IMG/VR virus record: IMGVR_UViG_3300032220_001761 | Span: 1,134-65,133 of that record | Direction: 5' to 3' (one strand) | Source: a virus | Taxonomy: Duplodnaviria; Heunggongvirae; Uroviricota; Caudoviricetes | DNA: 64,000 bases | In this document: positions 10,299-47,510 of the stretch, piece by piece | Layout: every line of letters begins with the position of its first letter | Numbering within the stretch: the first letter of the stretch is position 1 | Position numbers and translations under genes: made by a program | The notes under the pieces: model-generated | The model's input: the letters and a program-made list of their open reading frames with translations, nothing else | Database searches by the model: none | Told to the model about the DNA's origin: nothing

Positions 10299-11397
10299 TC
10301 AATAGAAACTTGTTACTTATAGCCTTGAACGAGATTTTTCTGTTCTTGCTCCTCATAACAACTCCCTCACGATCGAAATGCTGATTAAGAATTGATTTTC
10401 CATCAGCATATTTTAAAATCTCTTCTATTGTAGAAGGGAGAATATAATTTGTTTCTATTTTTGGAACTGTTTCTAAGCCTAACACATTAATAGTTTCCTC
10501 GAATTCATTTAGACCTGCATACTCATGATTATCAATATTAAATACGTTGAAGAAGTATACTTTTTGTCCCTTAATTTTATAAGGATTTCCTTGTATTCCC
10601 TCTCCCACTAATTCACCTTGGAAAGATACATTGTACCCTAGAGATTTCATCTTATTTTCTAGATTCATTTCCCTTGCTACTCTCCAGAATGTATTTCCTT
10701 CTGTTTCCAAAAGTTCTAAATTTCTAGAGCAAACACCAAATACACCGTCATTATAGTAGAAGGTTGAAGATGATCCATCAAGTTTTTCAGAAACGTAAAA
10801 TCCATCAGAAAACTCTTCTCTCCATTTTTCTACCTCAGAGCTTAGATTTTGTATTCTCTCCTCGTCGGTTTTTGGTATGAAAGAAGGAAAAAGACCTTTA
10901 GCAAGTCCAGCTAATTCTGCTGGCATAGGTGGCTCGTATTTAACGATACCAAGTACTTCCGTAAGATCCTCTCCTTCTCTTACAGGAACCATGTCTTTAG
11001 GTGTTATCAAAACTCCGTTTGGCTCTATAGCAAAAAAAGTACCTTCTTCTAAAACCAATGCAGTTTCAGAGAGCCTATAATTTGCAGAGTTGATAGCATC
11101 CTTTAGTGGTATTATCAATCCTTGAGAAACCTGCCCTCTAAGTTTGATTGTCTTTAATCTGAATCCCTCAGACCCATCAGCCATTTTTTTATAGGATGAC
11201 TTACGTAGAAATTCGAACTGCTCCTTTATAGGAAGAAATGAATCAATCTCGCAATAAACTGCTAGATCTCCAACTTTATGTCCTACATTTTTTGCTACGA
11301 CCACTTTCCATCCGTTTACAATTGCTAACTCTATAGCATCTGCACCTTCGATAGGAAGAATATCTTTTATCTTTTGTATACTTGCTAGTTTTCTCAT
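10288..11397 (-). CDS. ATP-dependent RNA ligase (Rnl family, N-terminal OB-like domain plus nucleotidyltransferase domain)
   Basis: Ligase motif I EKLDGSS (KxDG), motif IV EGVV, motif V KISFKAISNKF. N-terminal ASIQKIKDILPIEGADAIELAIVNGWKVVVAK resembles the DraRnl/Pab1020-type N-domain. Confidence 0.7.
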   Translation of the reverse strand: MRKLASIQKIKDILPIEGADAIELAIVNGWKVVVAKNVGHKVGDLAVYCEIDSFLPIKEQFEFLRKSSYKKMADGSEGFRLKTIKLRGQVSQGLIIPLKDAINSANYRLSETALVLEEGTFFAIEPNGVLITPKDMVPVREGEDLTEVLGIVKYEPPMPAELAGLAKGLFPSFIPKTDEERIQNLSSEVEKWREEFSDGFYVSEKLDGSSSTFYYNDGVFGVCSRNLELLETEGNTFWRVAREMNLENKMKSLGYNVSFQGELVGEGIQGNPYKIKGQKVYFFNVFNIDNHEYAGLNEFEETINVLGLETVPKIETNYILPSTIEEILKYADGKSILNQHFDREGVVMRSKNRKISFKAISNKFLLNEK

Positions 11398-20258: not shown

Positions 20259-21449
20259 TTAATCTAATGAATAGAACTTCCTTCTTATATTGATCAACAT
20301 AGAGGAAGTTAAATCTGGATCAACAGTATCTGGTAGATCTGATTCATTAAATAAACGATCGATTTCTAGAATGTCATTTTCAGCACGATCGATTAAGCTT
20401 TGCAAATCAACTTCACCTCTACGAATGGCCAACAGTTCTTGAGCATTTTCTCTTCTAACTAAGATACCTTTACCCTGAGCAATTTCTTTAGCCATTTCAA
20501 GTAGCCTACGACAGTGCATCATGTTTTTACCATCGATCTTTTGACCGTGAGTTTCAACATCAACCCATCTTTGTAAGTTTCTTTTATCTAGCCATTCTTG
20601 GTATTCGTTGTAATCTTTACAATGTTGAGTGTATCCATCTTTATTGTAAATGATATTACAGATCGGTTTTTCTCCTTTAGGAATAGAAGATAAACGTAAT
20701 TGGTTCGATTCTGCTAGGTTAGATCCCTCCCCAGTTTTCACAAGACCTTTATATCCAAATCCGAAAGGTTCCCCCTTTATATTTTGAGAATCCTTTTGGA
20801 ATCTACGTAATTCTCCTGGGATAGATTCACTAAAACAACAATAAGCAATACTATCAAAGAAAACTGCATATAGGTCTCTGGCGTTAGGAACATTAGAAAC
20901 CCCACAGAATTTTTCTTCAAATCCTTCCTTCTCGTTCCATATCTTCCATGGGATTGATTTTTCACCTTCAATAACATAGCAGAAATCAAGAACATCCTTT
21001 CTGGTAACCTTTTCTTTTTCCCAGTTTTGCTTCTTATCCTGTCCTTTTGCCTTCTTGATCTGTTGGATAGCATATCCACCAAACGAATTAGAGCACTTTT
21101 TAGTGATAAATTGGTCCCGTAGCTCAATTATTTCCCCTATCAATGGGTGTTTGTATAGAATACAGTCTTCTGGTGTGTTTAAGAGCTCTAAAATAGTTGG
21201 ATTATTAGAAGCAACTAATTCTAGAAATCTTTTGACCTCATAAAAAACTGTGTCGTTCTTGTCGTCATTGATCTGCTCTTTATAATGGAAGCCTAAGATG
21301 TCGTCTATCTTTTGTATATAAACACCAGCATAGTCTATATCAGAGGTAGGTAAAGCAGTACCATAAGCCTGTGATCCTCTTTTAACAATAAGTAAGGGCT
21401 GAGCCCCAGGGGACTTGCTTTCTATCAAGTCCAAAAATTCTTGTAACAT
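20259..21449 (-). CDS. polymerase-beta-superfamily nucleotidyltransferase (minimal NTase N-domain plus helical C-domain)
   Basis: NTase signature KRGSQAYGTALPTSDIDYAGVY (GS...SDxD). Confidence 0.5.
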   Translation of the reverse strand: MLQEFLDLIESKSPGAQPLLIVKRGSQAYGTALPTSDIDYAGVYIQKIDDILGFHYKEQINDDKNDTVFYEVKRFLELVASNNPTILELLNTPEDCILYKHPLIGEIIELRDQFITKKCSNSFGGYAIQQIKKAKGQDKKQNWEKEKVTRKDVLDFCYVIEGEKSIPWKIWNEKEGFEEKFCGVSNVPNARDLYAVFFDSIAYCCFSESIPGELRRFQKDSQNIKGEPFGFGYKGLVKTGEGSNLAESNQLRLSSIPKGEKPICNIIYNKDGYTQHCKDYNEYQEWLDKRNLQRWVDVETHGQKIDGKNMMHCRRLLEMAKEIAQGKGILVRRENAQELLAIRRGEVDLQSLIDRAENDILEIDRLFNESDLPDTVDPDLTSSMLINIRRKFYSLD

Positions 21450-21856
21450 TATAGCAATTTTAAATGATTAGTAACAGGATCTATTTCATCCGCCCAATTT
21501 GGTCCAATGGCAATACATGTTTTTGTAGGTACACCACTAAATTCAGTAAGACCCGCATCAGTGATTATAGATGCAATAAGTCCCGCATCCTTAGCCTTTT
21601 CGTATATCTCTATTAATTCAGATTCGGAATCTACTGAAACACAAACCTTAGTAAATAACCCATTGATCCAAGACTCCATTGGGGTTCCACTTTCAAGTAT
21701 GAGTGTTTTTTCTTGAATTTCTTTTCTGTGCGACAATATAACCATTCGATCTAGTACTGCTGCCATTGATGCGTGTGCACCTTGAGCTACCATCTTGCCT
21801 TTTCTCATATTCAGGTCTTTGCGCATGACAATAACCTGCTTTGCTATTCTTTCCAT
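21449..21856 (-). CDS. peptidyl-tRNA hydrolase, PTH2 family
   Basis: QVIVMRKDLNMRKGKMVAQGAHAS, ITDAGLTEF...TKTCIAIGP, VTNHLKLL, all matching PTH2 conserved blocks. Confidence 0.75.
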   Translation of the reverse strand: MERIAKQVIVMRKDLNMRKGKMVAQGAHASMAAVLDRMVILSHRKEIQEKTLILESGTPMESWINGLFTKVCVSVDSESELIEIYEKAKDAGLIASIITDAGLTEFSGVPTKTCIAIGPNWADEIDPVTNHLKLL

Positions 21857-25298: not shown

Positions 25299-25724
25299 TT
25301 GGCCCAAGAAACAAACAATGAGGTCTTCAGTAATATAGCCATGATAAGAAGCAAATATAGCAGGAGAATAAGGAAAAAGAAGAGACTGGGCGAATTTACA
25401 GAGAACGGATTTCTCATTTATCTTTATTGTGGGGAAGACAAAGACTTTTTCATAATCGATTCATTTATCGACCTTATTGTTAAAAAAAGGATGTATTGCT
25501 CCGGGGGTGGTGATTCTAAAAAATATTCATTCCTTGTAGAAAGACAAAGAAAAGAAATAACACCAGAAGAGAGAGAATTTGTAATAGAGGAGGCTAGAAA
25601 AATACAAGGGGTAAATGATGTATTAGCTTTAGATTTAGTCAATCTATGGTACAGCGACTCAGATGAGTATTTCGAAAAAGCAGAAGAAAAAATTAAAGAG
25701 CATGAAGAAAAAAGAGGAATATAA
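25299..25724 (+). CDS. hypothetical protein
   Basis: 141-aa ORF. Confidence 0.4.
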   Translation: MAQETNNEVFSNIAMIRSKYSRRIRKKKRLGEFTENGFLIYLYCGEDKDFFIIDSFIDLIVKKRMYCSGGGDSKKYSFLVERQRKEITPEEREFVIEEARKIQGVNDVLALDLVNLWYSDSDEYFEKAEEKIKEHEEKRGI

Positions 25725-26244
25725 ACAACAAATCCTTGGAGAAGTATTTACACCTGTTTTTATGACAGAGGATGAATTCGAAAAAGGATACAAAGAATCT
25801 ATATTTTGGACAGATAAGGATTTCATGTCAGAGTATAGAAAGCACATAGCTGCAATGTCTCATGTATCTGAATGTGCGAAGATATACATTCTTAAAAATT
25901 GGGCGAAGGTCAAGGATTGGAGCGAATTAGATGTGGTTATAGTACATGGTCCTTCTGGAAAAATGACGGAATACTATAATTATGTTCCTAGAGAAATTAA
26001 CAACGACCATAAAATAAAGGAAGGGGCTTATTCAAATCTGTTAAAAGAAATTGATGAGAAAAACAAGCTAAAGCATAATCCCATAAGGGAATTTAACGAG
26101 GTTATCCTTGACCCCACAGACGGTGATTTTTCAGTTACAGTAAATGGCAACGAAGAGCACTGGTGGATACAAGACGAAGCTGTTATAATAATAGCAGATT
26201 ATATTGAAGAACAATTAAAAAAACAAGATAATGAGGAAGCTTAA
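25663..26244 (+). CDS. hypothetical protein (start probably the Met at 25702)
   Basis: 193-aa ORF with lysine-rich N-terminus. Confidence 0.45.
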   Translation: MSISKKQKKKLKSMKKKEEYKQQILGEVFTPVFMTEDEFEKGYKESIFWTDKDFMSEYRKHIAAMSHVSECAKIYILKNWAKVKDWSELDVVIVHGPSGKMTEYYNYVPREINNDHKIKEGAYSNLLKEIDEKNKLKHNPIREFNEVILDPTDGDFSVTVNGNEEHWWIQDEAVIIIADYIEEQLKKQDNEEA

Positions 26245-27127
26245 CTTAGCAAATCCAGAAAAAAGTGGGATAGAATTTCAAATTTCTAAATTCCCAGATG
26301 GTCAGCAATCAGTGACTATAAATTCTCCGTTCTTAGCATCAACAGAACCTATAACAATAATCTCTAGAATGAACTCGTTCCGAGATCTTGAGCTTATCAT
26401 CTGTGCTAATGTCGCATTAAAAGAAATAGGAACTAAAGAAATCCATCTCTTTGTACCTTATTTTTTAGGAGCAAGATCAGATCGTAAATTCGTAGACGGA
26501 GGATCTAACTACCTAAAAGATGTCATCTGTCCTATCATCAACATGCAGAATTTCGAAACGGTTACGGTTTTAGATCCTCACTCTGATGTTTTAGAAGCTT
26601 GTCTTAAAAATTTCAGAAAAGAAACCAATATTGAATTTGTAAGAAAAGCTCTTACAAAGATCGATAATACAAATGATGCTAGAGAAAAAATGGTTATCAT
26701 TTCACCTGATGCAGGAGCAATGAAAAAGATCTATCAGGTTGCAGAAGCATTCTCGTTAGACAAAATTGTTATCGCTGCTAAACACAGGGATTTGAAATCT
26801 GGAAAGATTACTCACACGGAAGTACCAGATCTCAATAAATATTCACCAGATTCAAACTTTGTCATTATAGATGACATCTGCGATGGAGGTAGAACATTTA
26901 CTGAAATATCTAAAGTAATCAAATCTCATGTCTGGCCGAGGGACGAATATTTCAGAGGTAAGATCTATTTGATTATTACCCATGGTATTTTCTCTGCTGG
27001 TCTTTTAGATTTGAGTAGAAACTTCGACAATGTATTTACAACAAACAGTGTAAGGGATCTTGAGGTCGAGGATTTTTCAGATTACACTGTATCAAAAGAT
27101 TTTGTAATCCAATTTGAAGTTGTCTAA
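26231..27127 (+). CDS. ribose-phosphate pyrophosphokinase (PRPP synthetase) family protein. Candidate ADP-ribose pyrophosphokinase (Adps) of an NAD+ reconstitution pathway
   Basis: Prs-like blocks: FPDGQ (FsDGE), LELIICANVALKEIGTKEIHLFVPYFLGARSDRK (PYfgYaRQDRK), ISPDAGAMKK, and PRPP-binding loop VIIDDICDGGRT. Confidence 0.7.
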   Translation: MRKLNLANPEKSGIEFQISKFPDGQQSVTINSPFLASTEPITIISRMNSFRDLELIICANVALKEIGTKEIHLFVPYFLGARSDRKFVDGGSNYLKDVICPIINMQNFETVTVLDPHSDVLEACLKNFRKETNIEFVRKALTKIDNTNDAREKMVIISPDAGAMKKIYQVAEAFSLDKIVIAAKHRDLKSGKITHTEVPDLNKYSPDSNFVIIDDICDGGRTFTEISKVIKSHVWPRDEYFRGKIYLIITHGIFSAGLLDLSRNFDNVFTTNSVRDLEVEDFSDYTVSKDFVIQFEVV

Positions 27128-27129
27128 TT

Positions 27130-27498
27130 ATGAAAACAGAATTTAAAATCTCATCTATAGTCGGTATAAAAACCATTAATGAGAGAGAAAATACGTCATT
27201 TCAATGGTTTGATGAAATTCCAAGTAAATCTACATTTTTTGGAATGTTCAAATCTGAAAAAGTATCAGAAGGATTTGGAGAGATTGGGTACAATACGAGG
27301 TATACGGATCTGGACCTAATAAAAAGAGGTTATAACGTAAGTGGAAAGAAGGTATTTTACAGACCATATGCTACAGTCTATTTGGAACACGAGTACGAGG
27401 TACAAAAAACATTTAGATCCAATGAAGAAATGTCAGCATGGGTAAACTACCTAAAGACTGAAAATGGTGGAAATTTTGAAATTGTTAATCACAAATGA
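27130..27498 (+). CDS. hypothetical protein
   Basis: 122-aa ORF between the Prs-like and macro genes. 4-bp overlap downstream. Confidence 0.45.
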   Translation: MKTEFKISSIVGIKTINERENTSFQWFDEIPSKSTFFGMFKSEKVSEGFGEIGYNTRYTDLDLIKRGYNVSGKKVFYRPYATVYLEHEYEVQKTFRSNEEMSAWVNYLKTENGGNFEIVNHK

Positions 27499-28019
27499 GA
27501 TACGAAGAAATACAGGGGGATCTAATCAAATTAGCCAAAGAAGCTAAATTTGATGTTATAGCTCACGGATGCAATTGTCATTCACAAATGGGAGCTGGTT
27601 TAGCACCTCAAATGGCTAAAGCTTTTGGATGTGATAAATTCGAAATGGAATCTTGGGGATCCACTATTGAAAAACTTGGATGTATAGATTTTGAAACATT
27701 GGTATTAGGAAAAAATTCAATTTGGAGTTTAGCTGATGCAGACAACAAAGAAGGTGATCCTGAACTAGCAGTAGTTAATGCCTACACCCAATATAACTAT
27801 GGAAGAAATCACTCGGATGGGGATTTAAAACCTATAGATTATGAAGCACTTACCCTTTGCATGAGAAAAATGAATAAAATTTTTACAGGCAAACATATAG
27901 GTCTTCCACAAATAGGTGCAGGATTAGCAGGAGGAAATTGGAACAGAATTAAAAACATTATTCAAACAGAACTAGTTGACTGCAAAGTCACTGTAGTCAT
28001 TTACAACAAATTAGTATGA
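27495..28019 (+). CDS. macro domain protein (TARG1/OARD1-like ADP-ribose processing)
   Basis: VIAHGCNCHSQMGAGLA and GLPQIGAGLAGG match the OARD1-type macro ADP-ribose pocket (hGCNC..mGaGiA ... G.GlaGG). Confidence 0.65.
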   Translation: MRYEEIQGDLIKLAKEAKFDVIAHGCNCHSQMGAGLAPQMAKAFGCDKFEMESWGSTIEKLGCIDFETLVLGKNSIWSLADADNKEGDPELAVVNAYTQYNYGRNHSDGDLKPIDYEALTLCMRKMNKIFTGKHIGLPQIGAGLAGGNWNRIKNIIQTELVDCKVTVVIYNKLV

Positions 28020-28471
28020 CACTAAAAGACAAAATTCAAAAAGAATTCGTTGAAGCTATGAAAGCTAAAAACGATGTTGCTAAATCTGCCCTTAGCGGAT
28101 TAAAGGCAAAAATTACAGAGGCTGAAAAGGCTAACGGAAACGTATCCCTTGGAGATCCAGAGGTTGTTAAAGTCGTAAGCTCCGCAATCAAACAAAGAAA
28201 GCAATCTGTTGATGCTTTTGAGCAAGCTGGAAGAACTGATCTAGCCAATAAAGAAAAAGGCGAGATTATAGTATTGGAAACATTCCTTCCTAAGCAAATG
28301 ACAGAGGACGAGATTGAAAAGGCCGTAAGAGAAATCATTGCAAATATGCCAGAAGTTGCTACCAATGCTAATGCTCTTCAAGGAAAAACAATGGGTGCTT
28401 TCAACAAAGCTTATTCAGGTCAAGCAGATTCTAAAGTTGTAATGGAGATCATTAAAAAAGTAACAACATGA
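28016..28471 (+). CDS. GatB/YqeY domain protein
   Basis: DKIQKEFVEAMKAKNDVAKSALSGLKAKI...QRKQSVDAFEQAGRTDLANKEKGEIIVLETFLP...ANALQGKTMGAFNKAYSGQADSKVV follows the YqeY/GatB C-terminal domain pattern. Confidence 0.65.
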   Translation: MTLKDKIQKEFVEAMKAKNDVAKSALSGLKAKITEAEKANGNVSLGDPEVVKVVSSAIKQRKQSVDAFEQAGRTDLANKEKGEIIVLETFLPKQMTEDEIEKAVREIIANMPEVATNANALQGKTMGAFNKAYSGQADSKVVMEIIKKVTT

Positions 28472-28692
28472 AACCTATAACAGCTAAAGAAGCTAGAGAA
28501 ATAACTGATGCTTATTCCGAAGCGGGAATGGACGATATTCTAAAAAATATCAGAGAAGGTGCTGCTGGTGGAAATGACCATTTAACAATGGACTACGTTT
28601 CAAAAGGTCAAAAAAAGGTTTTGGAATCTCTTGGATATGGTGTTAATTGGCATGACATGGGGAGAGATGGGTATTGGAAAATTTCATGGTAA
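28468..28692 (+). CDS. hypothetical small protein
   Basis: 74-aa ORF, 4-bp overlap. Confidence 0.4.
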   Translation: MKPITAKEAREITDAYSEAGMDDILKNIREGAAGGNDHLTMDYVSKGQKKVLESLGYGVNWHDMGRDGYWKISW

Positions 28693-28736
28693 AAACAAGA
28701 AAATATTAATCAATACTATTTACACTGGAGTGGATA

Positions 28737-28925
28737 ATGGATAAAAAATTAGAATCTGAGTACATCTATTGGGTAAAGAGGCTAAGGCTCGAAGACCTTC
28801 ATACAGAAATGCAAAATATAGAGTGGGGGATTCAAAATATAAAATCCGAAAAAACTTTAGAAAATGTCCTTGTCAAAAAAGGAATACTCGAAAAAGAATA
28901 CGAAACAAGAAATAACAAGAAATAA
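28737..28925 (+). CDS. hypothetical small protein
   Basis: 62-aa ORF. Confidence 0.3.
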   Translation: MDKKLESEYIYWVKRLRLEDLHTEMQNIEWGIQNIKSEKTLENVLVKKGILEKEYETRNNKK

Positions 28926-28926
28926 A

Positions 28927-29418
28927 ATGGAAAAAAATAGCAAATACTATTTCTTCTATAAAACAAGGCATCCATTTTCCAATTGGCATCCATGTTCATT
29001 TGAAGACAAAGAAGGAAATCAATACACTTGCTCAGAGCAATACATGATGGCTCAGAAAGCTTTACTCTTTGGAGATAAAGAAATATTTGAAGAAATCATG
29101 GACGAACCGGATCCAAAATTTCAAAAAGAATTGGGAAGGAAGGTTAAAGGGTTCGATTCTAAGATATGGAACGATAATGCGAAAAGAATAGTTTATGAAG
29201 GATGTAAGCTTAAATTTGAACAAAATGAAAAGTTACTAAAAGTATTACTTGATACAAAAGGAACTTTTCTAGTAGAGGCTTCTCCATATGATAGAATCTG
29301 GGGTATAGGTCTTGGAGAAGACGATCCAGCAATACACGATCCTGCTAATTGGAATGGATTGAATTGGCTAGGTGAAGTTCTTACCGACTTAAGAGATGAC
29401 ATAATTAATAATCAATAA
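28927..29418 (+). CDS. NADAR-domain (YbiA-like) N-glycosidase / ADP-ribosyl glycohydrolase
   Basis: FSNWHPCSF...YTCSEQYMMAQKALLFGD...LGRKVKGFD...KFEQNEKLLKVLLDTKGTFLVEASPYDRIWGIGL matches the NADAR/YbiA family. Start set to Met at 28927, immediately after the preceding stop. Confidence 0.65.
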   Translation: MEKNSKYYFFYKTRHPFSNWHPCSFEDKEGNQYTCSEQYMMAQKALLFGDKEIFEEIMDEPDPKFQKELGRKVKGFDSKIWNDNAKRIVYEGCKLKFEQNEKLLKVLLDTKGTFLVEASPYDRIWGIGLGEDDPAIHDPANWNGLNWLGEVLTDLRDDIINNQ

Positions 29419-29430
29419 AAACAAAACAAA

Positions 29431-30993
29431 ATGTTCAAACCAAACAGTTTATTCTACAGCGACGGCTATAAGATTGGCCACAAAAAAATGCTTGCTAAAG
29501 GAACTTCTCGTCTTTATGGTACATGGATTCCTAGAAGCATTAAGCATGCTCCTAAAGGTGTTAAGAAAATCCTTTCATTCGGACAACAACTTGCAATGAA
29601 ATGGCTTCATGATGAATTTTCAGAAAACTTTTTTAAACTATCCAAAGAAGATGCAATGCAATTCGGAAATGATATGTCATTGTATCTTGGTATGGATTAT
29701 GATGCTTCGCACTTTGAAGCTCTTCATGATCTAGGATATCTTCCAATTCGTGTAAAATCTTTACCAGAGGGGATCGAGACTTTACCAAATATCCCTCATA
29801 TGACATTCATTAACACTCTTGATGGATTTGCTTGGCTTACTCTTTATCTTGAAACTATCATTTCTTCACTTTCTTGGAAGCCTTCAACTTCGGCAACCAT
29901 TGCATTACAATACAAAAGAAACGTGGTTGAATGGGTAATGAAAACGGATCCAGCAAATTCTTTCCTCATTCCTTTTCTTTGCCATGATTTTTCTGCTAGG
30001 GGATTAAGTCCTTGGGATATGTTATCAAGCGGTCTAGGACACGCTACATCATTTCTAGGATCTGATACAATCATTTGTATCCCAGGAGCACGTTACTTCT
30101 ATAACGAGCCTAATGACCAAGTTGCAATCTACTCTGTAAATGCTTCTGAACACTCCGTATCGACAACTAAGATTTTTACAGTTGGTGAACAACAAATGAT
30201 AGCGGATTGGTTGGTAGATTTTCCTAAAGGTATCTTATCAATTGTATCTGATACTTTTGACCTTTGGAAGTTAATCACCGAGTACTTACCAGCAAATAAA
30301 GAAGCTATCATGGCTCGTGACGGTAAGTTAGTTATTCGTCCCGATTCTGGTGATCCTGTTGATATTATTTGTGGAATCAATACAAGGAATGATCCTGATA
30401 ATCGTTACGTTAAATTAGCTGGTACTCCTGAATACAAAGGAGTAATTGAATTACTTTGGGACATCTTCGGTGGCACAACCAATGAACAGGGTTACAAAGT
30501 ACTAGATCCTCATATCGGAGCAATCTATGGGGATTCAATTAATTTGGATCGTCAAATTCAAATCTATGAAAGATTGGAAGCTAAAGGTTTTGCTGCAACT
30601 AACATTGTTTTAGGAGTAGGATCTTTTACGTACCAAATGAACACTAGAGATACTTTTGGTTTTGCAGCTAAAGGAGCTTGGTTCGAGGTTAAAGAAGAGA
30701 TTGGTCAAACAGTTGATACATTACAGCCAATTTACAAATACACTGGATTTGATATTTTTAAGGATCCTGTAACAGATGATGGTACTAAAAAATCTCTAAA
30801 AGGTATGGTTGCTGTATTTGAAAATGACGGAGACCATTATGTTAAGATTCAATGTACACAGGAAGAAGAGGAAACAGGATTACTACAAGTTATCTATGAA
30901 AATGGTAATTTTTATAACCAATCTTCATTAACTGAGATTAGAGCAAAAATCAATGAGCTTTGTAACGAAAAAGTTCTTGAAACAGAAATTTAA
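29431..30993 (+). CDS. nicotinamide phosphoribosyltransferase (NAMPT/NadV) family protein. Candidate nicotinamide-ADPR transferase (Namat)
   Basis: N-terminal SDGYKIGHKKM...GTSRLYGTWIPRS (TDSYK..H...YP.T...ys.R) and overall 520-aa NAMPT-like length. Confidence 0.8.
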   Translation: MFKPNSLFYSDGYKIGHKKMLAKGTSRLYGTWIPRSIKHAPKGVKKILSFGQQLAMKWLHDEFSENFFKLSKEDAMQFGNDMSLYLGMDYDASHFEALHDLGYLPIRVKSLPEGIETLPNIPHMTFINTLDGFAWLTLYLETIISSLSWKPSTSATIALQYKRNVVEWVMKTDPANSFLIPFLCHDFSARGLSPWDMLSSGLGHATSFLGSDTIICIPGARYFYNEPNDQVAIYSVNASEHSVSTTKIFTVGEQQMIADWLVDFPKGILSIVSDTFDLWKLITEYLPANKEAIMARDGKLVIRPDSGDPVDIICGINTRNDPDNRYVKLAGTPEYKGVIELLWDIFGGTTNEQGYKVLDPHIGAIYGDSINLDRQIQIYERLEAKGFAATNIVLGVGSFTYQMNTRDTFGFAAKGAWFEVKEEIGQTVDTLQPIYKYTGFDIFKDPVTDDGTKKSLKGMVAVFENDGDHYVKIQCTQEEEETGLLQVIYENGNFYNQSSLTEIRAKINELCNEKVLETEI

Positions 30994-31005
30994 TAAGTAT
31001 TGAAT

Positions 31006-31043
31006 CCTCTGCTGTAAATCCCCAACGGCAGAGGGTTTATTTT
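31006..31043 (+). terminator. rho-independent terminator after the NAMPT-like gene
   Basis: CCTCTGC...GCAGAGG stem followed by GTTTATTTT. Confidence 0.6.
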
Positions 31044-31075: not shown

Positions 31076-32935
31076 ATGTTAGAAACAGTAATTCAGTATT
31101 GGTGGACAATTATTCCACTGTTAGCAATTGTATTCTACAAGTTTACATTGCGTGTATTTTTCGGGATGGTAATTATCCCGGAAGATAAAATCGGTTTGGT
31201 AACCAAAAAATTCGTTCTCTTCGGAGCAAACAAACAATTACCAGACGGAAAAATTATTGCTCTCAACGGAGAAGCAGGTTATCAAGCAAATGCTTTAGCT
31301 CCTGGTTTATACTGGGGTTACTGGGTTTGGCAGTTCTCTGTAGATCAAGCGGATCTTACAGTCATTCCTAAAGGGAAAATTGGTTTGTTGTCAGCAAAGG
31401 ACGGAACGCAACTTCCTACTGGTGCTATCCTTGCACGTCACGTAGAATGTGACAACTTCCAGGATACAGTTGCTTTCCTAAACAACAAGGGACAAAGAGG
31501 TAAACAGGTCGGTTATCTAAACAACGGGGTTTACCGTATTAATACATTCCTATTTGATATAGCAATTGCGGATATCACTTATATAGAAGACGGAATGGTT
31601 GGTGTTGTAACTACATTGGATGGAACACCATTAGATCAAGGAAACATTGCTGGTAAAGTTATTCCAGGACACAACAATTTCCAGGATTTTGATAAATTCT
31701 TAAGCAGTGGCGGACAACGTGGTCTACAAGAACAAGTAATTCAAGCTGGTAACTATTCTCTTAATCCTTGGGCAGTTGAGGTTGAAAAAGTTCCAATGAC
31801 AGAAATCGCTATTGGACACGTAGGTGTGGTAATTTCATATGTTGGGGACAAAGGCGAAGATTTAACTGGATCTGGCTTCAAGCATGGTAATATTGTTAGA
31901 GAAGGACAAAAAGGTGTATGTATTACTCCTTTCGATCCTGGTAAATATGCGGTTAACCCTTACACACATAAAATTGAAAGAGTCCCAACAACAAACCTTG
32001 TATTGAACTGGGCAAACGCAAGAACAGAATCGCATAACTTAGATAAGAGTTTAAGTACGATCACTGTTCGTTCAAAAGACGGCTTCCCGTTTAATCTTGA
32101 TGTATCCCAAATTATTCACATTCCTTCTACGGAAGCTCCGAAGGTGATTGCACGATTTGGATCTATGCAAAACTTGGTATCTCAAGTATTAGAGCCAACT
32201 ATCGGTAACTACTTCCGTAACTCTGCTCAAGGCTCAGATGTTATTGCTTTCTTAGCTACCCGACAAGATCGTCAAAATGCAGCTAAAGAAGCTATCAGTA
32301 AGGTTTTAGAGGAATACAACGTTCATGCGGTTGATACACTTATAGGTGATATAGTTCCACCTGATTCTCTAATGAAGACCTTAACCGACCGTAAGATTGC
32401 ACAGGAAGAAGAGGTAACTTTCGAAACACAGCGTAAAGCACAAGACCAACGTAAGACACTAGAGTCTGCTAAGGCTCTTGCTGATATGCAAGGTAAAATG
32501 GTAGCTGCACAACAATCAGTTGAAATCTCACAACGTGAAGCAGAAGCAGCAGTTAAGAAATCAGAAGGGGAAGCGAAAGCATTAGAACTTAAAGCTGGTG
32601 CTCAGGCAAAAGCTAAAAAGCTAATGGCTGAAGCTGATGCTGCTCAGATTAAATTAACAGGTGAAGCTGAAGCATCAAAAATTGCAGCAATTGGTAAATC
32701 TACAGCGGAAGCTTACGAGAAACAGGTTAAAGCAATGGGTGCAGATAACTTCGGTAAATTAAAAGTTACTGAGATGATAGGTACAAACGGAATCAAGATC
32801 ATTCCTGAGATTCTAATCTCTGGCAACGGAGATTCATCTCCGATTAATGGACTTTTAGGGATGGAACTTCTTAAGCAAATTCAAGAAAAGAAAGAAAAAT
32901 CTGGAAACATTAATGAGGGTAAGGTGATAGAATAA
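31076..32935 (+). CDS. flotillin/SPFH-family membrane protein (YqiK-like)
   Basis: N-terminal TM helix. Internally duplicated NFQD...GQRG.Q repeats. Ala/Glu/Lys-rich C-terminal coiled-coil region (AKALELKAGAQAKAKKLMAEADAAQIKLTGEAEASKIAAIGKSTAEAYEKQ) typical of bacterial flotillins. Confidence 0.65.
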   Translation: MLETVIQYWWTIIPLLAIVFYKFTLRVFFGMVIIPEDKIGLVTKKFVLFGANKQLPDGKIIALNGEAGYQANALAPGLYWGYWVWQFSVDQADLTVIPKGKIGLLSAKDGTQLPTGAILARHVECDNFQDTVAFLNNKGQRGKQVGYLNNGVYRINTFLFDIAIADITYIEDGMVGVVTTLDGTPLDQGNIAGKVIPGHNNFQDFDKFLSSGGQRGLQEQVIQAGNYSLNPWAVEVEKVPMTEIAIGHVGVVISYVGDKGEDLTGSGFKHGNIVREGQKGVCITPFDPGKYAVNPYTHKIERVPTTNLVLNWANARTESHNLDKSLSTITVRSKDGFPFNLDVSQIIHIPSTEAPKVIARFGSMQNLVSQVLEPTIGNYFRNSAQGSDVIAFLATRQDRQNAAKEAISKVLEEYNVHAVDTLIGDIVPPDSLMKTLTDRKIAQEEEVTFETQRKAQDQRKTLESAKALADMQGKMVAAQQSVEISQREAEAAVKKSEGEAKALELKAGAQAKAKKLMAEADAAQIKLTGEAEASKIAAIGKSTAEAYEKQVKAMGADNFGKLKVTEMIGTNGIKIIPEILISGNGDSSPINGLLGMELLKQIQEKKEKSGNINEGKVIE

Positions 32936-32938: not shown

Positions 32939-33415
32939 ATGAAATTACAAGTCCTTAAACCAACTGACGGTGACTCTGTAAAAAACAGAGTCACCGTTTT
33001 TCTTGCAGGATCTATTGAGATGGGTGCTGCAGAAGATTGGCAAACAAAATTAGCCAACGATTTACAAGACATCCCGGTAACACTTTTTAACCCAAGAAGA
33101 GATTCTTGGGATTCTTCATGGGAGCAAAGAATGTCTAATCCAGAGTTCAGATACCAGGTAAACTGGGAGATGAACATGCTAGAATCTTCCGATATAATAT
33201 TTCTTTATCTTTCTCCGGAAACTAAATCCCCTATTTCACTACATGAATTAGGACTTCATGCTGACAGTGGAAAAATGATAGTTTGTTGTCCCGATGGATT
33301 TTGGAGAAAGGGAAACGTTGAAATAACTTGTGCTAGACACGGTATTCCTTTATACAACGATATAAACCATGCAAAGGATGCTTTAATCACGCTAATAAGC
33401 TCTAAAACAATATAA
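32939..33415 (+). CDS. nucleoside 2-deoxyribosyltransferase-like / DNPH1-like N-glycoside hydrolase fold protein
   Basis: VFLAGSIE (iYlAGP-type start), ...SLHELGLHADSGKMIV (catalytic-Glu ELG motif of the NDT/DNPH1 family). 3 bp after the flotillin stop. Confidence 0.5.
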   Translation: MKLQVLKPTDGDSVKNRVTVFLAGSIEMGAAEDWQTKLANDLQDIPVTLFNPRRDSWDSSWEQRMSNPEFRYQVNWEMNMLESSDIIFLYLSPETKSPISLHELGLHADSGKMIVCCPDGFWRKGNVEITCARHGIPLYNDINHAKDALITLISSKTI

Positions 33416-33416: not shown

Positions 33417-34343
33417 ATGAATGATTTAAAATTTTTGAATACTGCCTTCGTAATAAAAAAGGACAGTAAAACAGGTGGGAACGGAACTATTACCTATATG
33501 GATTTAGAAATGTCACCATCTTCCGACAGGGTTGAAACCTGGGGACTTACAGAAGCAGGGGAAGCCCCACACGAACTTAGAATGGTTACTAGATCTAAAT
33601 TTTTTGAGCTTCAAAGATTTCAGGTAAAGTCGACATACCCTTCAGAACTTATATCTGATCTTAATTATTACCACGGAGTAGATGGTAATTCTATGATTGA
33701 TGAGGCATTGAATAATGAGATGGATCAATCTCTCATTAAAAATCTATACAAAAAATACAGTGAGATTGGAGAAATAACAAGGGTATCCCAATATACAAAA
33801 TGGCAAAAGTTCATTCTTAAAATCTCCCCTAAAATGATTTTTACCAATTATATTAAAGAGGATAGAAATGGATCTGAAATGCTCTATAATAAGATTGTGG
33901 TAGAAGCTAATAAGATAGCATCTAGAACAAGAATAAAACCAGGAGATTTTATTGTATGTGGTTCACTAGTAGGGTCTTTATTACAGGATCACCCAGGATT
34001 TTCATTCGAGTCATTAAATAACTCGATCTCTATGAAAACACCTAGCATAGACTATGTTGGAAACATTGCAGGAAGAATAGCTGTTTATGTTAATGCAAAT
34101 GAAAAGTTTAGTGATGGATGGGTAATTATAGGCAGAAAAACAAACACACATGAAACTGGTGTCTATTTTATTTATGAGGACAGAGAAAAAATTCAACTAG
34201 CGGATATAGATCCATCAAAAAATAAATTTGGTATAACACAAAGAGCTGCAATAGTTGATACCCACGGGGCAGAAAAATCATTTTCAAAAATACACTTCAC
34301 AGTGGGTAAAAAACCATTCTGGAAAAAACTTTTTAATATTTAA
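33417..34343 (+). CDS. hypothetical protein
   Basis: 308-aa ORF, 1 bp after the upstream stop. Confidence 0.5.
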   Translation: MNDLKFLNTAFVIKKDSKTGGNGTITYMDLEMSPSSDRVETWGLTEAGEAPHELRMVTRSKFFELQRFQVKSTYPSELISDLNYYHGVDGNSMIDEALNNEMDQSLIKNLYKKYSEIGEITRVSQYTKWQKFILKISPKMIFTNYIKEDRNGSEMLYNKIVVEANKIASRTRIKPGDFIVCGSLVGSLLQDHPGFSFESLNNSISMKTPSIDYVGNIAGRIAVYVNANEKFSDGWVIIGRKTNTHETGVYFIYEDREKIQLADIDPSKNKFGITQRAAIVDTHGAEKSFSKIHFTVGKKPFWKKLFNI

Positions 34344-39611: not shown

Positions 39612-40715
39612 TTATGAGAAGTTTTCAGATATTTGATTATCTTCAAATGATCCGCCAGCTCCGGCACCTCCAAAATGACCCCCTCCAAAATGTGTTTCGT
39701 GTTTATCTTCAAATAGGGTAGAACCATCTCCAACTACTTCTCTTAACAGGAAATAGTTTATCATATAATTTTGATCATCTAAATTATTGGTTAGATATAA
39801 ACCATTTTCGTCAGTTTCTGTAATACTCTTAGCTTTAGGCGTAAAGTCTTGGATTCTTTTCAGATAGCTTCTTTTGGTTAAATCCCCGTGCCATATATGA
39901 AAAAGATTTCCTTTAACATATCCAATCTTTCCTTGTACAACCCAATAGAATTTTGATGACCATCCGTTTACATTTCCGAGATCATCAGAAAAAGATTTGG
40001 CTATACATGAGTGACCAATTTGGCCTGCTGCTGCATGTGCAATTATATGATCCGCTCCACCGACCAAGGCTTTATCGAAAAGTGGAACCTCCTCTAATAC
40101 TTCTCTTCTTGCACCCCATGCAAATCCTACATGACCGTGGATATCATAATTTTCTCTGGCAGATAGATGTTTAGAGTAAACGTAATTAGCGCAGAAGCTT
40201 CTCCACATATCAGGATGCCTTAAATCTTTATCCATGGAAAACTTCTTGTGATTTTCAAAATCAAAATTGGGTTTGTCCATATCTTTTTGAAGATGAATGC
40301 ACCATTCAAAAGGTTGAATAATCTTATTAGAATGAAGTTCTTGAACTCCTTCTACTATCCAATTTTCGTTGTCAAAAATAACATCCGCGTCTACCCAGAA
40401 AACAAATTTATATTCCTCTGGAAGTGTTGAAACTATTTTATTCAAAAGCGATTCCTTGTGCCATAGGAGATTTTTTGTTCTTATGACAGATACATTCTTG
40501 AGATGAGAAAACTCCGGTGAATCTTCACCAATTACACACTCAATAATCCTGAAATTTGTGTGCTTAATAGATTCATAGAATTTCATGAATGCTTTTCTTC
40601 GATACTCAGATTTCTGAGGGTTAAAGAAGCAAGAAATTATAACAGCCTCCGGATGGGATTTGTATCCAGATTGTTTTTGTTTTTTAAAAAAATTTGAAAA
40701 GAACATTTTATGCAA
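39612..40715 (-). CDS. putative GT-A-fold glycosyltransferase with glycine-rich C-terminus
   Basis: FVFWVDADVIF (DxD-type motif), overall nucleotide-diphospho-sugar transferase-like. C-terminal HFGGGHFGGAGAGGSF. Confidence 0.4.
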   Translation of the reverse strand: MHKMFFSNFFKKQKQSGYKSHPEAVIISCFFNPQKSEYRRKAFMKFYESIKHTNFRIIECVIGEDSPEFSHLKNVSVIRTKNLLWHKESLLNKIVSTLPEEYKFVFWVDADVIFDNENWIVEGVQELHSNKIIQPFEWCIHLQKDMDKPNFDFENHKKFSMDKDLRHPDMWRSFCANYVYSKHLSARENYDIHGHVGFAWGARREVLEEVPLFDKALVGGADHIIAHAAAGQIGHSCIAKSFSDDLGNVNGWSSKFYWVVQGKIGYVKGNLFHIWHGDLTKRSYLKRIQDFTPKAKSITETDENGLYLTNNLDDQNYMINYFLLREVVGDGSTLFEDKHETHFGGGHFGGAGAGGSFEDNQISENFS

Positions 40716-41214
40716 GTCTTAAGGGTGATAAAAATTTTCTCAATGCAACTATTTTTTCGGCTTCCTGTGGATCTGATGAAAAATTCTCGACCCAAGAATC
40801 ATAAGGGGGGATAAAATCACCGCCTCCGGCCTTGGCGTAGTCTGAAACGATCTTTTCGTAATCTGTCCAGTTTTCCTTATCCCAAACTCTATCTTCTACC
40901 AAGAAAACAACAGCTGTTAATTGATCTCCTAGATCTGGCTCATAGAATAAAGCGACCTTCTTTTCACCAATCAGCATTCTTAAAAATGAAGCATGTTGAT
41001 TAAGAGTACCAGGAGAAATTGGATTTGTACTTGTTGTGCCTCCATTTAAGATGATAAAGGTCTTATCCTCTTTAGCCCATCTTTGGTATTCAGGTGTTTC
41101 TCCATAGAGTAACCCATACTCAACTACTGCATGTCCAAATTGTATCCCTTGTTGGATAGGACTGATGTTATATGGGACTAACCCATACATTCTATATTTT
41201 CTTTCTGTATTCAT
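40708..41214 (-). CDS. hypothetical protein, possibly a divergent PTH2-fold protein
   Basis: YGLVPYNISPIQQGIQFGHAVVEY and ALFYEPDLGDQLTAVVF loosely parallel the PTH2 blocks (DL.M..GK.AAQ..HA and DAGRTQI..GS.TV.AIGP). Confidence 0.35.
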   Translation of the reverse strand: MNTERKYRMYGLVPYNISPIQQGIQFGHAVVEYGLLYGETPEYQRWAKEDKTFIILNGGTTSTNPISPGTLNQHASFLRMLIGEKKVALFYEPDLGDQLTAVVFLVEDRVWDKENWTDYEKIVSDYAKAGGGDFIPPYDSWVENFSSDPQEAEKIVALRKFLSPLRLA

Positions 41215-41948
41215 TGCTTTTCAAATGTTGGTTTTAACCATAATCCCCTACCAAAAACTAGTTTAGTAAATCCTGGAAGTACTTCTTCTACAGATCTGAA
41301 AAGCTCTAGTGTTCTAACAGTATCAGCTTTCATCATCTTGTAAACTTCCTCCCTGATTCTTTCAGCACTAACCACCTTTTCTAATTTTTCAAGGATATCA
41401 GGCTGGTTCATTGCATTCATGATGTCAAGATGAATATCAAATCCCTTAGTAATTGAGAATCTCAAAGCTCTTAAGAATCTCAAAGGATCGTCCATCATAG
41501 TTTTGTATGCGGGCAGGGGGGTTCTCAAAATTCTTCTCTCGAGATCCTTTACCCCTCCGAATAGATCTATCAGATTACCATCGACATCTTTTGCCATGGC
41601 ATTAAGAGTAAAATCTCTTCGGATCAAATCGTCTTCAAGTGTTCCTAGAACAAGAATAGGGTTTCTTGTCCCTTCTTGGTATCCTATCTCTTTCCTAGCC
41701 ATAACAAAGTCAGCGACTAGGCCATTGAATTTATGATCCTTTGGAAACTTAGCTCTAATCGTAAACATTTCTGGAGTAGACAAGAATATTTCGTATCCCC
41801 TTTCTTTCATCCATTGCGTCATCTCATCGAATCCCTCACCTACAGTCTTGTTTAGATCATCAAGAACAAAGGTAAAGTCAATATCCTTAGATTCGATACC
41901 TAGTATCTCATCTCTTACGCATCCTCCTACAAAAAATATCTCTGGCAT
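41211..41948 (-). CDS. tRNA nucleotidyltransferase (CCA/CC/A-adding enzyme, class II head-and-neck only)
   Basis: IFFVGGCVRDEILG..SKDIDFTF (GGxVRD...DxD), RRDFTLNAMA, DPLRFLRALRF. Confidence 0.8.
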   Translation of the reverse strand: MPEIFFVGGCVRDEILGIESKDIDFTFVLDDLNKTVGEGFDEMTQWMKERGYEIFLSTPEMFTIRAKFPKDHKFNGLVADFVMARKEIGYQEGTRNPILVLGTLEDDLIRRDFTLNAMAKDVDGNLIDLFGGVKDLERRILRTPLPAYKTMMDDPLRFLRALRFSITKGFDIHLDIMNAMNQPDILEKLEKVVSAERIREEVYKMMKADTVRTLELFRSVEEVLPGFTKLVFGRGLWLKPTFEKQ

Positions 41949-47454: not shown

Positions 47455-47469
47455 TTTCTTTTTTAAAAA

Positions 47470-47499: not shown

Positions 47500-47510
47500 A
47501 GATTATTTTA

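Follow-up and report, generated by a model that had tools for sequence, protein, structure and literature searches.

The 64,000-nucleotide stretch analyzed here (the window), probably from an uncultured large (jumbo) phage, contains a region that we judge, with a probability of about 0.7, to be a NARP1-type NAD+ reconstitution operon in its extended 'NARP1-AP' form, with further passenger genes. NARP1 is known from phages Bas63, SPbetaL1, Fado and ICP1 (NrsAB), and comprises the enzymes Adps and Namat. From the published biochemistry of the homologues, Adps would use ATP to pyrophosphorylate ADP-ribose (ADPR) to ADPR-PP, which Namat would condense with nicotinamide to give NAD+. The route would thereby reverse the cleavage of NAD+ by TIR, SIR2 and SEFIR defense effectors.

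The features are summarized in Table 1. Positions 26231 to 30993 form one tightly packed plus-strand gene string in the order Prs-like, 122-aa ORF, macro, YqeY, two small ORFs, NADAR and NAMPT-like. All the ORFs described there in an earlier sequence-only reading are present in the ORF list of the window. At four successive junctions the genes are either spaced by 2 nt or overlap by 4 nt, and the arrangement therefore fits a single transcription unit. The string ends in a hairpin terminator, as the same reading had proposed, with a folding energy of −21.6 kcal/mol (z = −4.13 relative to shuffled sequences). A simple terminator scan did not pick up this hairpin, owing to a loop of more than 8 nt. 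The plus-strand block is preceded by a divergent intergenic region (25223 to 25298). The 193-aa ORF found no match in Pfam, PHROG or NCBIfam searches; its homologues lie immediately upstream of Adps in two related loci (L024 and L052) and near Adps in another (L032).

Table 1. Features of the NARP1 region and its flanks, in window coordinates.
Feature	Position	Strand	Remarks
YggL-like ORF	25299..25724	+	Pfam YggL_50S_bp 5.8e-11; opens the plus-strand block
193-aa ORF	25663..26244	+	14-nt overlap with Adps start
Adps, predicted ADP-ribose pyrophosphokinase (NARP1 step 1)	26231..27127	+	Prs-like, 298 aa
122-aa ORF	27130..27498	+	Recurrent NARP1 neighbor
Macro-domain protein, Adpp family, putative ADPR-1''-phosphate phosphatase of NARP1-AP	27495..28019	+	174 aa
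YqeY/GatB-C-like protein	28016..28471	+	151 aa; Pfam YqeY 2e-35
74-aa ORF	28468..28692	+	4-nt overlap with YqeY stop
62-aa ORF, putative coding	28737..28925	+	Also called by the ENA gene caller
NADAR, predicted N-glycosidase	28927..29418	+	ORF opens at 28864 (28864..29418)
Namat, predicted nicotinamide ADP-ribose transferase (NARP1 step 2)	29431..30993	+	NAMPT-like, 520 aa
Intrinsic-terminator-like hairpin	31001..31039	+	U-rich tract to about 31043
SPFH/band-7 protein	31076..32935	+	Pfam Band_7 2e-25; recurrent downstream neighbor
Nucleoside 2-deoxyribosyltransferase-like protein (PF15891)	32939..33415	+	Pfam Nuc_deoxyri_tr2 6e-37

The Prs-like protein matches Pfam Pribosyltran (8e-8). It is 31–32% identical to the biochemically validated Adps proteins of ICP1 and Gary (about 100 bits), but 19% identical to Escherichia coli Prs, and scores 61 bits or less against 26 Prs sequences from the PDB. 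Every residue of ICP1 Adps that has been named as ligand-contacting or catalytic is kept (PMC13586617): F18, R87, F92, H121 and D161 correspond to F21, R82, F87, H117 and D160 in the window protein, and K185, D212, D213 and D216 to K184, D214, D215 and D218. Phe87 is an Adps-specific residue, and the PP loop DDICDGGRTF is of the Adps type. The NCBIfam Prs models all fall below cutoff (87 bits against 113); validated Adps proteins score 98–100 bits and E. coli Prs 423–533 bits. The family phrog_619 does not discriminate between Adps and Prs. Matches to the window protein occur in 1,228 phage records. Its sequence thus points to a NARP1 Adps, as suggested earlier, and not to a housekeeping Prs.

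The NAMPT-like protein (Pfam NAPRTase, 8e-32) matches the SPbetaL1 Namat structures 9W5X and 9W5W at 1e-111, and Nampt structures at 4e-46 or weaker. Its residues 397–407, GSFTYQMNTRD, fit GSxΦxΦxΦTRD, the selectivity clamp that marks Namat; the corresponding segment of the phage B23 NARP2 Nampt reads GGGLLQAHDRD. The catalytic core is kept (D11, Y13, F187, R190, D212, H241, R303 and D305). Met403 replaces the adenine-stacking Tyr396 of SPbetaL1, a substitution found in 10 of 58 relatives, and Lys38 corresponds to Arg40. The sequence thus supports the assignment as Namat in place of NadV. No NMNAT (CTP_transf_like) or Nudix domain was detected among 97 non-overlapping ORFs of the window (a scan of ORFs of at least 55 aa, taking the longer of any overlapping ORFs), in agreement with the sequence-only reading of a pair lacking NMNAT.

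The window locus shares with the characterized NARP1 systems both core enzymes on one strand, the family-defining residues and motifs, and the lack of a nearby NMNAT. It differs in the spacing of the two genes, which are adjacent in the type operons but here lie 2.3 kb and six ORFs apart, in enzymes that are just 31–44% identical to characterized members, and in the Met that replaces the second adenine-stacking aromatic residue of Namat. Among 58 related NARP1 loci taken from IMG/VR after de-duplication, the Adps–Namat gap reaches 5.7 kb.

The macro-domain protein links the locus to NARP1-AP, the Adps–Adpp–Namat arrangement of Vibrio phage Gary. Its match to Pfam Macro is just 0.0099, but it matches phrog_335 ('phosphatase', 1.9e-43), the PHROG family that includes Gary Adpp. 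The two share the same PDB neighbors, and a BLASTP alignment gives 31% identity over the full length (E = 2e-16). Comparison with a profile built on 10 published Adpp sequences gives an hhalign probability of 99.8% (E = 3e-28). In both loci the gene lies between Adps and Namat. The window protein differs in a 20-residue insertion (about residues 64–90), and its interval holds five more ORFs, including NADAR and YqeY. It had earlier been called TARG1/OARD1-like, which describes its fold neighborhood and not its chemistry, because the position of the TARG1 catalytic Asp125 is Ala here and in all aligned Adpp sequences. DarG models reach 26–28 bits over about 40 residues only. In NARP1-AP, carried as Adpp by 15% of NARP1 phages, the macro protein dephosphorylates the ADPR-1''-phosphate made by the aRES defense (bioRxiv, January 2026; 10.64898/2026.01.28.702374), so that a macro insertion of this kind is already published. 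That is also the documented substrate of Adpp, in place of the protein-bound, DNA-bound or O-acyl ADPR suggested for the window protein (10.64898/2026.01.28.702374). As an Adpp homologue, the latter would strip the 1''-phosphate off ADPR-1''-P generated by RES-type NAD+ phosphorylases such as aRES, and so restore the Adps substrate. Since the macro family is wider than NARP1 (about 2,500–2,700 phage records, far above the number matching Adps) and in phAPEC8 and Cellulophaga phi17:2 is found at sites remote from NARP1, family membership alone leaves the substrate unfixed.

The NADAR gene probably starts at Met22 of its ORF, one base past the stop of the 62-aa ORF. The protein matches Pfam NADAR (5.9e-52) and TIGR02464 (169.6 bits). 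Its best PDB match is 8BAU, the stand-alone NADAR of P. nicotianae (5.6e-23), with YbiA (2B3W) at 3e-7; no DarG1-type NADAR structure was matched at E < 0.01. The catalytic Glu/Lys pair lies within SEQYMMAQK, as E37 and K44 in the numbering from Met22 (E58 and K65 in that of the whole ORF). The fold and the spacing of this pair are shared with the anti-DarTG1 NADARs of phages T4 (AdfN, gp30.3, in which E36 and K43 were mutated), Bas32 and Bas60, but the best structural relative of the window protein is of the stand-alone eukaryotic or bacterial type, and not a DarT1-linked NADAR. All four NADAR subtypes tested hydrolyze guanine-ADPr in vitro (PMC11125620), and action on guanine-ADPr on DNA (DarT1-type toxins) is the sole activity demonstrated among its relatives. 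The co-transcribed protein would be an ADP-ribosyl N-glycohydrolase, freeing ADPR from N-linked adducts; soluble N-linked ADPR derivatives are possible substrates.

Mycobacteriophage DyoEdafos offers a similar design: its NARP1 locus encodes RyDEP, a RyR-domain O-glycosidase that acts on 2'cADPR and 3'cADPR (10.64898/2026.05.28.727677). There too a glycosidase is inserted in the operon, and its product, linear ADPR, is the Adps substrate. The window's glycosidase is instead a NADAR, with an N-glycosidase fold, and Pfam and PHROG searches of the island revealed no RyR domain. The nearest NADAR from a cultured phage lies in the NARP2-type operon of Synechococcus phage B23 (gp46 NMNAT, gp47 NADAR, gp49 Nampt). 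It is of the same subfamily (53% identity, phrog_1017) and likewise immediately upstream of a NAMPT-family gene, but it is paired with an NMNAT and a true Nampt (GGGLLQ, 28% identical to the window Namat) instead of Adps and Namat, and ADPR is not used there. This weakens the view that NADAR feeds ADPR to Adps, which is just one possible reading. The earlier proposal that the inserted enzymes feed ADPR into NARP1 stands in principle, but less well for NADAR. Iyer et al. had already reported in 2022 that NADAR neighbors phage NadV-type genes, as well as NadM (PMC9503650). The full arrangement had been put forward as perhaps undescribed, but contigs L055 and L066/L067 from public viral data have the same gene set.

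The macro gene is present in 25 of the 58 related loci, and NADAR in 11. The two tend to occur together, macro being present in 10 of 11 loci with NADAR and 15 of 47 without (Fisher p = 5e-4, uncorrected for shared ancestry). Three loci (L021, L037 and L050) have compact Adps–macro–NADAR–Namat strings with gaps of 0–190 bp.

The remaining genes appear to be recurrent or local passengers without an assignable step. The commonest NARP1 accessory in this clade is the nucleoside 2-deoxyribosyltransferase-like gene, present in 37/58 loci. In 15 of these it falls within the Adps–Namat interval, and it frequently overlaps the stop codon of Namat. Its protein matches 4MCJ, an 'uncharacterized protein' (3.6e-29). 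In the window it falls outside the span considered earlier. The SPFH/band-7 gene immediately follows Namat in L006, L007, L009, L012, L022, L027, L037, L050 and L093. YqeY occurs in seven of the 58 loci, and is found immediately upstream of Adps in L026, L069 and L091 (2-nt gap) and of Namat in L066 and L085. The 122-aa ORF has homologues in nine of the 58, and only eight in 5.8e9 proteins; a Pfam search found no domain in it, and the pLDDT of 57 of its AF2 model precludes a fold assignment. Homologues of the 74-aa and 62-aa ORFs were sought in the related loci and none were found; PHROG matches to the former are all weak.

The macro protein and NADAR might be separate counter-defense enzymes clustered with NARP1 that do not feed Adps, for example DNA/RNA de-ADP-ribosylases directed at DarT2-like and DarT1-like toxins in an early or anti-defense cluster. 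The NADAR subfamily (47–54% identity) is spread over 719 phage records; of its best matches, the two inspected, in Xp12 and WH1, have no NARP genes nearby. Two NADARs of phages outside the T4 clade counter DarTG1 in vivo (PMC11257639), Macro and NADAR tend to co-occur genome-wide in DNA viruses (Iyer et al.), and the NARP2-embedded NADAR and NARP1-free macro genes noted above are in keeping with such independence. Yet 24 of the 25 macro genes and 9 of the 11 NADAR genes fall strictly inside the Adps–Namat interval, frequently at spacings of 0–85 bp, and for one NADAR per 200–300 kb genome the chance of this is estimated to be well under 1% per locus. For the macro protein, experiments on a homologous operon of three genes have demonstrated the coupling (10.64898/2026.01.28.702374), and both the poor DarG scores and the Ala at the TARG1 catalytic position (by homology that of DarG) argue against a DarG-like role. 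We therefore consider an uncoupled cluster unlikely, though it deserves some weight.

It is considerably less probable that the operon recycles by-products of RNA repair. In such a scheme a Tpt1/KptA-type enzyme would spend NAD+ on removal of 2'-phosphate in tRNA repair, the macro protein and perhaps NADAR would process ADPR-1''-P or ADPR-1''-2''-cyclic phosphate, and NARP1 would rebuild NAD+. Exactly this role is played by Poa1p, the yeast homologue of Adpp (10.64898/2026.01.28.702374). RNA ligases and a phosphoesterase flank NARP1-AP in Gary, and Iyer et al. tied Macro and NADAR to RNA repair. The window encodes an RNA ligase with a PHA02142 OB fold (10288..11397), RlaP (20259..21449), cREC_REC (cyclic-phosphate processing, 2068..2484), PTH2 and a CCA-adding-type nucleotidyltransferase, and cREC-like and Thg1-like genes lie beside NARP1 in six related loci each (labeled by eye on cluster representatives). 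However, these window genes are 5–24 kb away on the opposite strand, Tpt1/KptA (PF01885) was not detected among the ORFs scanned, and the sole experimental phenotype of Adpp is against aRES (10.64898/2026.01.28.702374). Classical salvage with NARP2-like logic, in which the Prs-like protein makes PRPP, the NAMPT-like protein makes NMN, and the last step to NAD+ falls to an NMNAT of the host or one encoded at a distance by the phage, is highly improbable. Database names favor it (Prs-like, and 'nicotinate phosphoribosyltransferase' from NF006629, whose cutoff of 405 bits is passed with 419), in vitro Namat enzymes keep some activity with PRPP, and the NMNAT search was confined to the 64-kb window. 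Against this stand the Adps-type PP loop and Phe87, the low Prs model scores, the selectivity clamp in place of GGGLLQ, the closeness to Namat structures and the lack of a detected NMNAT in 64 kb. Moreover, Osterman et al. found NARP1 and NARP2 together in no phage, and Namat adjoining 97% of Adps-clade genes.

Within the preferred reading of an extended NARP1-AP operon, NADAR, YqeY and the other putative helper genes come on top of the already published phosphatase. The NADAR may both detoxify an ADP-ribose adduct and supply the substrate of NARP1.

The genes of the island form a tightly packed string on one strand, as the sequence-only reading had described, and all of its ORFs were found again (table). 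Family calls for the island genes are backed by Pfam, PHROG and NCBIfam. At four successive junctions the ORFs overlap by 4 nt or are separated by 2 nt. The likeliest start of the NADAR gene is Met22 (28927), one base past the stop of the 62-aa ORF, where the alignment with the PDB structure also begins. Directly 3' of the NAMPT-like gene there is a 15-bp hairpin (dG −21.6 kcal/mol, z = −4.1) followed by a U tract, in agreement with the proposal that the block is closed by a terminator; a simple terminator scan overlooked this hairpin. The plus-strand block begins at 25299, past a divergent intergenic region. A sigma-70 promoter scan gave 34 sites compared with 34.2 in shuffled sequences, and Bacteroidota-type promoters lie outside the models of the scan. 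We therefore claim no promoter.

Features of the window, with their recurrence in the 58 merged loci that hold both Adps and Namat
Feature	Position	Strand	Basis	Loci with the gene	Loci with it between Adps and Namat
RNA-repair set	2068..2484, 10288..11397, 20259..21856, 41211..41948	−
Prs-like (Adps)	26231..27127	+	ORF and family match
122-aa unknown	27130..27498	+	ORF	9/58	2
Macro protein	27495..28019	+	ORF and family match	25/58	24
YqeY	28016..28471	+	ORF and family match	7/58	3
74-aa unknown	28468..28692	+	ORF
62-aa unknown	28737..28925	+	ORF
NADAR ORF	28864..29418	+	ORF and family match	11/58	9
NAMPT-like (Namat)	29431..30993	+	ORF and family match
Hairpin	31001..31039
SPFH/band-7 protein, 619 aa	31076..32935	+		7/58	0
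PF15891, deoxyribosyltransferase-like	32939..33415	+		37/58	15
308-aa ORF	33417..34343	+
168-aa ORF, phrog_3668 'hydrolase'	40708..41214	−
Cell-like regulatory and transport genes	45857..49286, 54394..56947	−
SmpB	56989..57420	−

The Prs-like protein is 31–32% identical to the biochemically validated Adps enzymes of ICP1 and Vibrio phage Gary, and 19% identical to E. coli Prs. At the positions that contact ADPR and ATP in ICP1 Adps it keeps F21, R82, F87, H117, D160, K184, D214, D215 and D218, and every residue named for ADPR, ATP and catalysis (PMC13586617) is present. Phe87 corresponds to Phe92 of ICP1, where E. coli Prs has Val, and Lys184 corresponds to Lys185. The PP loop DDICDGGRTF is of the Adps type, whereas that of E. 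coli Prs is DDMIDTGGTL. The NCBIfam Prs models have a cutoff of 113 bits; the window protein scores 87 bits, ICP1 and Gary Adps 98–100 bits and E. coli Prs 423–533 bits. Against 26 Prs sequences from the PDB, a set without the ICP1 Adps structures (ICP1 Adps gave no self-match), the window protein reaches at most 61 bits and ICP1 Adps 59 bits. We dropped phrog_619 as evidence for Adps, since it scores E. coli Prs at 193 bits and the window protein at 206 bits. It is blind to the division between Adps and Prs, and the calibration was therefore done with the NCBIfam models. Identity, residues, PP loop and scores all point to a member of the Adps clade, distinct from housekeeping Prs.

For the NAMPT-like protein the choice lay between NadV and Namat. 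Its PDB matches are the crystal structures of SPbetaL1 Namat (9W5X and 9W5W; PMC12774641) at 1e-111, Xanthomonas Nampt at 4e-46 and human Nampt at ~1e-38. It is 44% identical to the Namat homologues of ICP1 and Gary, and 28% identical to the Nampt of Synechococcus phage B23. The helix of the selectivity clamp has a motif specific to Namat, GSxΦxΦxΦTRD (PMC12774641). This reads GSFTYQMNTRD in the window protein (397–407), GSFTYQYVTRD in Gary and GSYTYQYVTRD in ICP1, compared with GGGLLQAHDRD in the NARP2 Nampt of B23. The core residues D11, Y13, F187, R190, D212, H241, R303 and D305 are present, and the contacts to nicotinamide and the ribose-phosphate are all kept, so that the lack of nicotinamide-binding residues, named beforehand as a sign against a Namat, is not seen. 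The deviations from SPbetaL1 are Met403 for Tyr396 and Lys38 for Arg40; position 7 of the clamp motif is thus Met, not Tyr or Phe, as it also is in 10 of 58 relatives. Clamp motif and Nampt-like catalytic core together identify the protein as a predicted Namat.

Adps and Namat lie on the same strand, 2.3 kb apart within the one gene string, and both core genes are no more than 8 kb apart in 58 of 64 related loci. NARP1 and NARP2 are reported to be mutually exclusive, with no NMNAT in the genome of a NARP1 phage. Domains were scanned in 97 non-overlapping ORFs of the window (each at least 55 aa long and clear of any longer ORF), and CTP_transf_like (NMNAT), NadR and Nudix domains were found in none of these. 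The window thus differs from NARP2, which combines a Nampt of the GGGLLQ type with NMNAT, in having a Namat-type motif and no NMNAT homologue within its 64 kb. Classical salvage, in which Prs-like and NAMPT-like enzymes would serve the ordinary PRPP and NMN route, is very unlikely given the Adps- and Namat-type features of both core enzymes. With an Adps-type protein and no NMNAT, neither of the observations that would have spoken for that route is made in the 64 kb covered, and the residues, motifs and scores of the two end genes support the assignment of the island to NARP1. In phages this pathway, in which Adps makes ADPR-PP from ADPR and ATP and Namat joins ADPR-PP with nicotinamide to give NAD+, is a major counter-measure against NAD+-depleting immunity.

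The macro protein has a precedent. The RES-domain defence aRES phosphorolyses NAD+ to nicotinamide and ADPR-1''-phosphate, which Adps is unable to use; ADPR is regenerated by Adpp, a Poa1p-like macro phosphatase encoded in the operon of 15% of NARP1 phages, giving the NARP1-AP form. ADPR-1''-phosphate phosphatase activity and an anti-aRES effect were demonstrated for Gary Adpp only (Osterman et al., 10.64898/2026.01.28.702374). The window protein is 31% identical to this tested Adpp over its full length and belongs to the same PHROG. Alignment by hhalign to a profile of 10 Adpp proteins from Table S1 of that work gave 99.8% with E = 3e-28. Ten of the 11 invariant Adpp columns are kept, and profile and window protein have the same order of PDB neighbours (BT1257, SCO6735, OARD1, Poa1p). 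Its gene is placed in the interval from Adps to Namat, just as the Poa1p-like macro gene of Gary is inside its NARP1 operon. We conclude that this gene encodes a member of the Adpp family, a putative phosphatase of NARP1-AP. The description 'TARG1/OARD1-like' stands for the fold neighbourhood, OARD1 being a near sequence neighbour of the Adpp family (53 bits to the Adpp profile), but not for the catalysis. TARG1 GCGLD125RLQW aligns with GAGLA145GGNW, so that the position of the catalytic Asp125 is Ala, as it is in all Adpp too, and a TARG1/OARD1-type glycohydrolase was rejected. The catalytic Lys84 of TARG1 is opposite Ser, within a poorly aligned loop. The numbering of the TARG1 sequence used reproduces K84 and D125. 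Published work already accounts for the core of the locus, NARP1 together with a macro phosphatase, and NARP1-AP largely pre-empts the novelty of the inserted macro gene.

Nucleotide search with the island gave no match in 50,697 phage records. Identical proteins occur on metagenome scaffolds (ENA ERZ28594567), and 190 kb is the length of the longest contig with an identical gene; the IMG/VR viral contigs with related genes reach 344 kb. Identity of the macro protein with that of Cellulophaga phages is 50%. Other products of the window are a Gp23-like fragment, an endolysin, thymidylate synthase, an RNA-repair set and SmpB. We infer that the source is a large, uncultured phage of a low-GC, probably Bacteroidota, host. 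The RNA-repair set comprises cREC_REC, an RNA ligase with a PHA02142 OB fold, RlaP with PTH2, and a CCA-adding-type nucleotidyltransferase. SmpB matches Pfam at 4e-43, and ARAGORN found no tmRNA or tRNA gene in the 64 kb. Among the cell-like genes are one for a GAF/PAS histidine kinase, next to which lies a receiver-like ORF, and those of an ABC transporter (ATPase, permease and a large OmpA-domain protein). The 308-aa ORF matches only positions 149–349 of the 376 of the T4 Gp23 major capsid profile; its neighbours code for glycosyl- and methyl-transferases, and it is not part of a structural module.

We compared the island with the 80 IMG/VR loci having the closest Adps (50–69% identity), 11 loci found via Namat, and phage Lbo-JY46. 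The ORFs of all these were searched with the window proteins, and loci with Adps at least 95% identical were merged. Scanning IMG/VR for Adps with a single protein gave nothing; an alignment-based scan was needed, and gave at least 524 tblastn-confirmed NARP1 matches. More than 7,600 homologues of the window Adps were scored. Both core genes are present in 58 merged loci; in every one of these they share a strand, and the distance between them ranges from 2 to 5,739 bp. Compact Adps–macro–NADAR–Namat strings occur in three related loci (L021, L037 and L050), and the full gene set of the window is also present in L055 and L066/L067. The island is an expandable cassette, and its gene order is common to these public contigs. 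What is new here is the recurrence of NADAR, PF15891, YqeY and SPFH in the NARP1 cassette of a very large environmental clade. At least three further families (NADAR, the PF15891 protein and YqeY) ride non-randomly in the same slot in the window and ~58 relatives.

The PF15891 gene, whose product resembles nucleoside 2-deoxyribosyltransferases and which lies past the terminator and the SPFH gene and outside the span first described, is the commonest NARP1 neighbour in the clade. It often overlaps the Namat stop in the relatives, and its closest structure is 4MCJ ('uncharacterized'). As a general NARP1 partner it was rejected: RsoM2USA and CcrColossus, two jumbo phages in culture, have it away from NARP1, and the link is therefore clade-specific. 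YqeY, a protein similar to the C-terminal part of GatB, precedes Adps by 2 nt in L026, L069 and L091, and Namat by ~86 nt in L066 and L085. Literature searches (deoxyribosyltransferase with NARP1, PF15891, YqeY with phage and NAD) found no functional study, and nothing that connects YqeY with NAD or ADPR metabolism. The SPFH gene adjoins Namat downstream in the window and in at least nine related loci, and a shorter band-7 family is present in 11. The 122-aa protein has only eight homologues, and the quality of its AlphaFold2 model (pLDDT 57) does not allow a search by fold. For the 74-aa and 62-aa ORFs the related loci gave no homologue. The phrog_3668 ORF is 10 kb from the window NARP1 genes on the opposite strand, and its homologues are within 1.5 kb of NARP1 genes in nine related loci.

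The NADAR protein matches PF08719 (5.9e-52) and PDB 8BAU (5.6e-23), and has the SEQYMMAQK and WGIG motifs and the catalytic Glu/Lys pair; it is a predicted glycosidase of the NADAR superfamily. It is related most closely to stand-alone NADARs (8BAU) and to proteins of the TIGR02464 type rather than to DarG1, and no ART or DarT domain was found among the scanned ORFs. The DarT1-associated antitoxin/AdfN clade was rejected on these grounds; in AdfN-like proteins His replaces a conserved Glu. The only PADLOC results were a match of NADAR to the candidate system PDC-M42C and a weak DarG stretch; nothing marks the island as a defence system. All four NADAR subtypes tested hydrolyse guanine-N2-ADP-ribose (PMC11125620), and two non-T4 phage NADARs overcome DarTG1 (PMC11257639). 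Macro is present in 10 of 11 NADAR loci versus 15 of 47 without NADAR (Fisher p = 5e-4, ignoring the kinship of the loci).

Several readings of the NADAR and macro genes have to be weighed (ALTERNATIVES). In the most novel of them, to which we give a probability of about one in four, NADAR, usually with the Adpp macro, would add a third feeder module to phage NAD+ reconstitution, in the manner of Adpp and RyDEP, and would turn an unrecognised N-linked NAD+-derived immune product into a NARP substrate. Such a product could be a base-exchange or His-ADPR/N-linked cADPR-type signal, or ADP-ribosylated nucleobases. The product of NADAR is free ADPR, so coupling to Adps would be chemically natural. 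It would also parallel RyDEP, a glycosidase within a mycobacteriophage NARP1 locus that converts 2'/3'cADPR to ADPR for NAD+ synthesis. Yet the subfamily is spread over 719 phage records, and there are no NARP genes near NADAR in Xp12 and WH1, which were inspected from among its best matches. The closest NADAR of a cultured phage (53% identity), gp47 of B23, lies between the annotated NMNAT gp46 and Nampt gp49 (region 5936..9111 of MN695335), so that one subfamily rides with both NARP1 and NARP2-type operons. This spread and placement weaken a simple feeder model.

It is possible that NADAR is an independent counter-defence gene that is merely co-located with NARP1, but its strict placement between the core genes fits this poorly. 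In a third reading, macro and NADAR would remove what the NAD+-dependent RNA repair of the phage itself leaves behind. The window encodes RNA ligase, RlaP, cREC and PTH2, and related loci have neighbours that inspection of representative sequences by eye labelled as cREC-like and Thg1-like, but Tpt1/KptA was not found among the scanned ORFs. Neighbourhoods like that of B23, with NADAR in a NARP2-type operon, were noted by Iyer et al. in 2022, and the novelty of the inserted NADAR is largely pre-empted by such surveys. Literature searches, including NADAR with NARP1 and NADAR with Thoeris, found no functional study of NADAR in a NARP context.

Genes inserted in these operons disclosed defence chemistries in two 2026 preprints, Adpp leading to aRES and ADPR-1''-phosphate, and RyDEP to 2'/3'cADPR. 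If the feeder reading is true, it would imply a matching class of non-canonical NAD+-consuming defences, with PF15891 and YqeY as additional modules that the expandable cassette has taken up. As riders in the same slot, NADAR, PF15891 and YqeY each offer a concrete lead to a new ADPR- or NAD-derived metabolite, or to a new defence.
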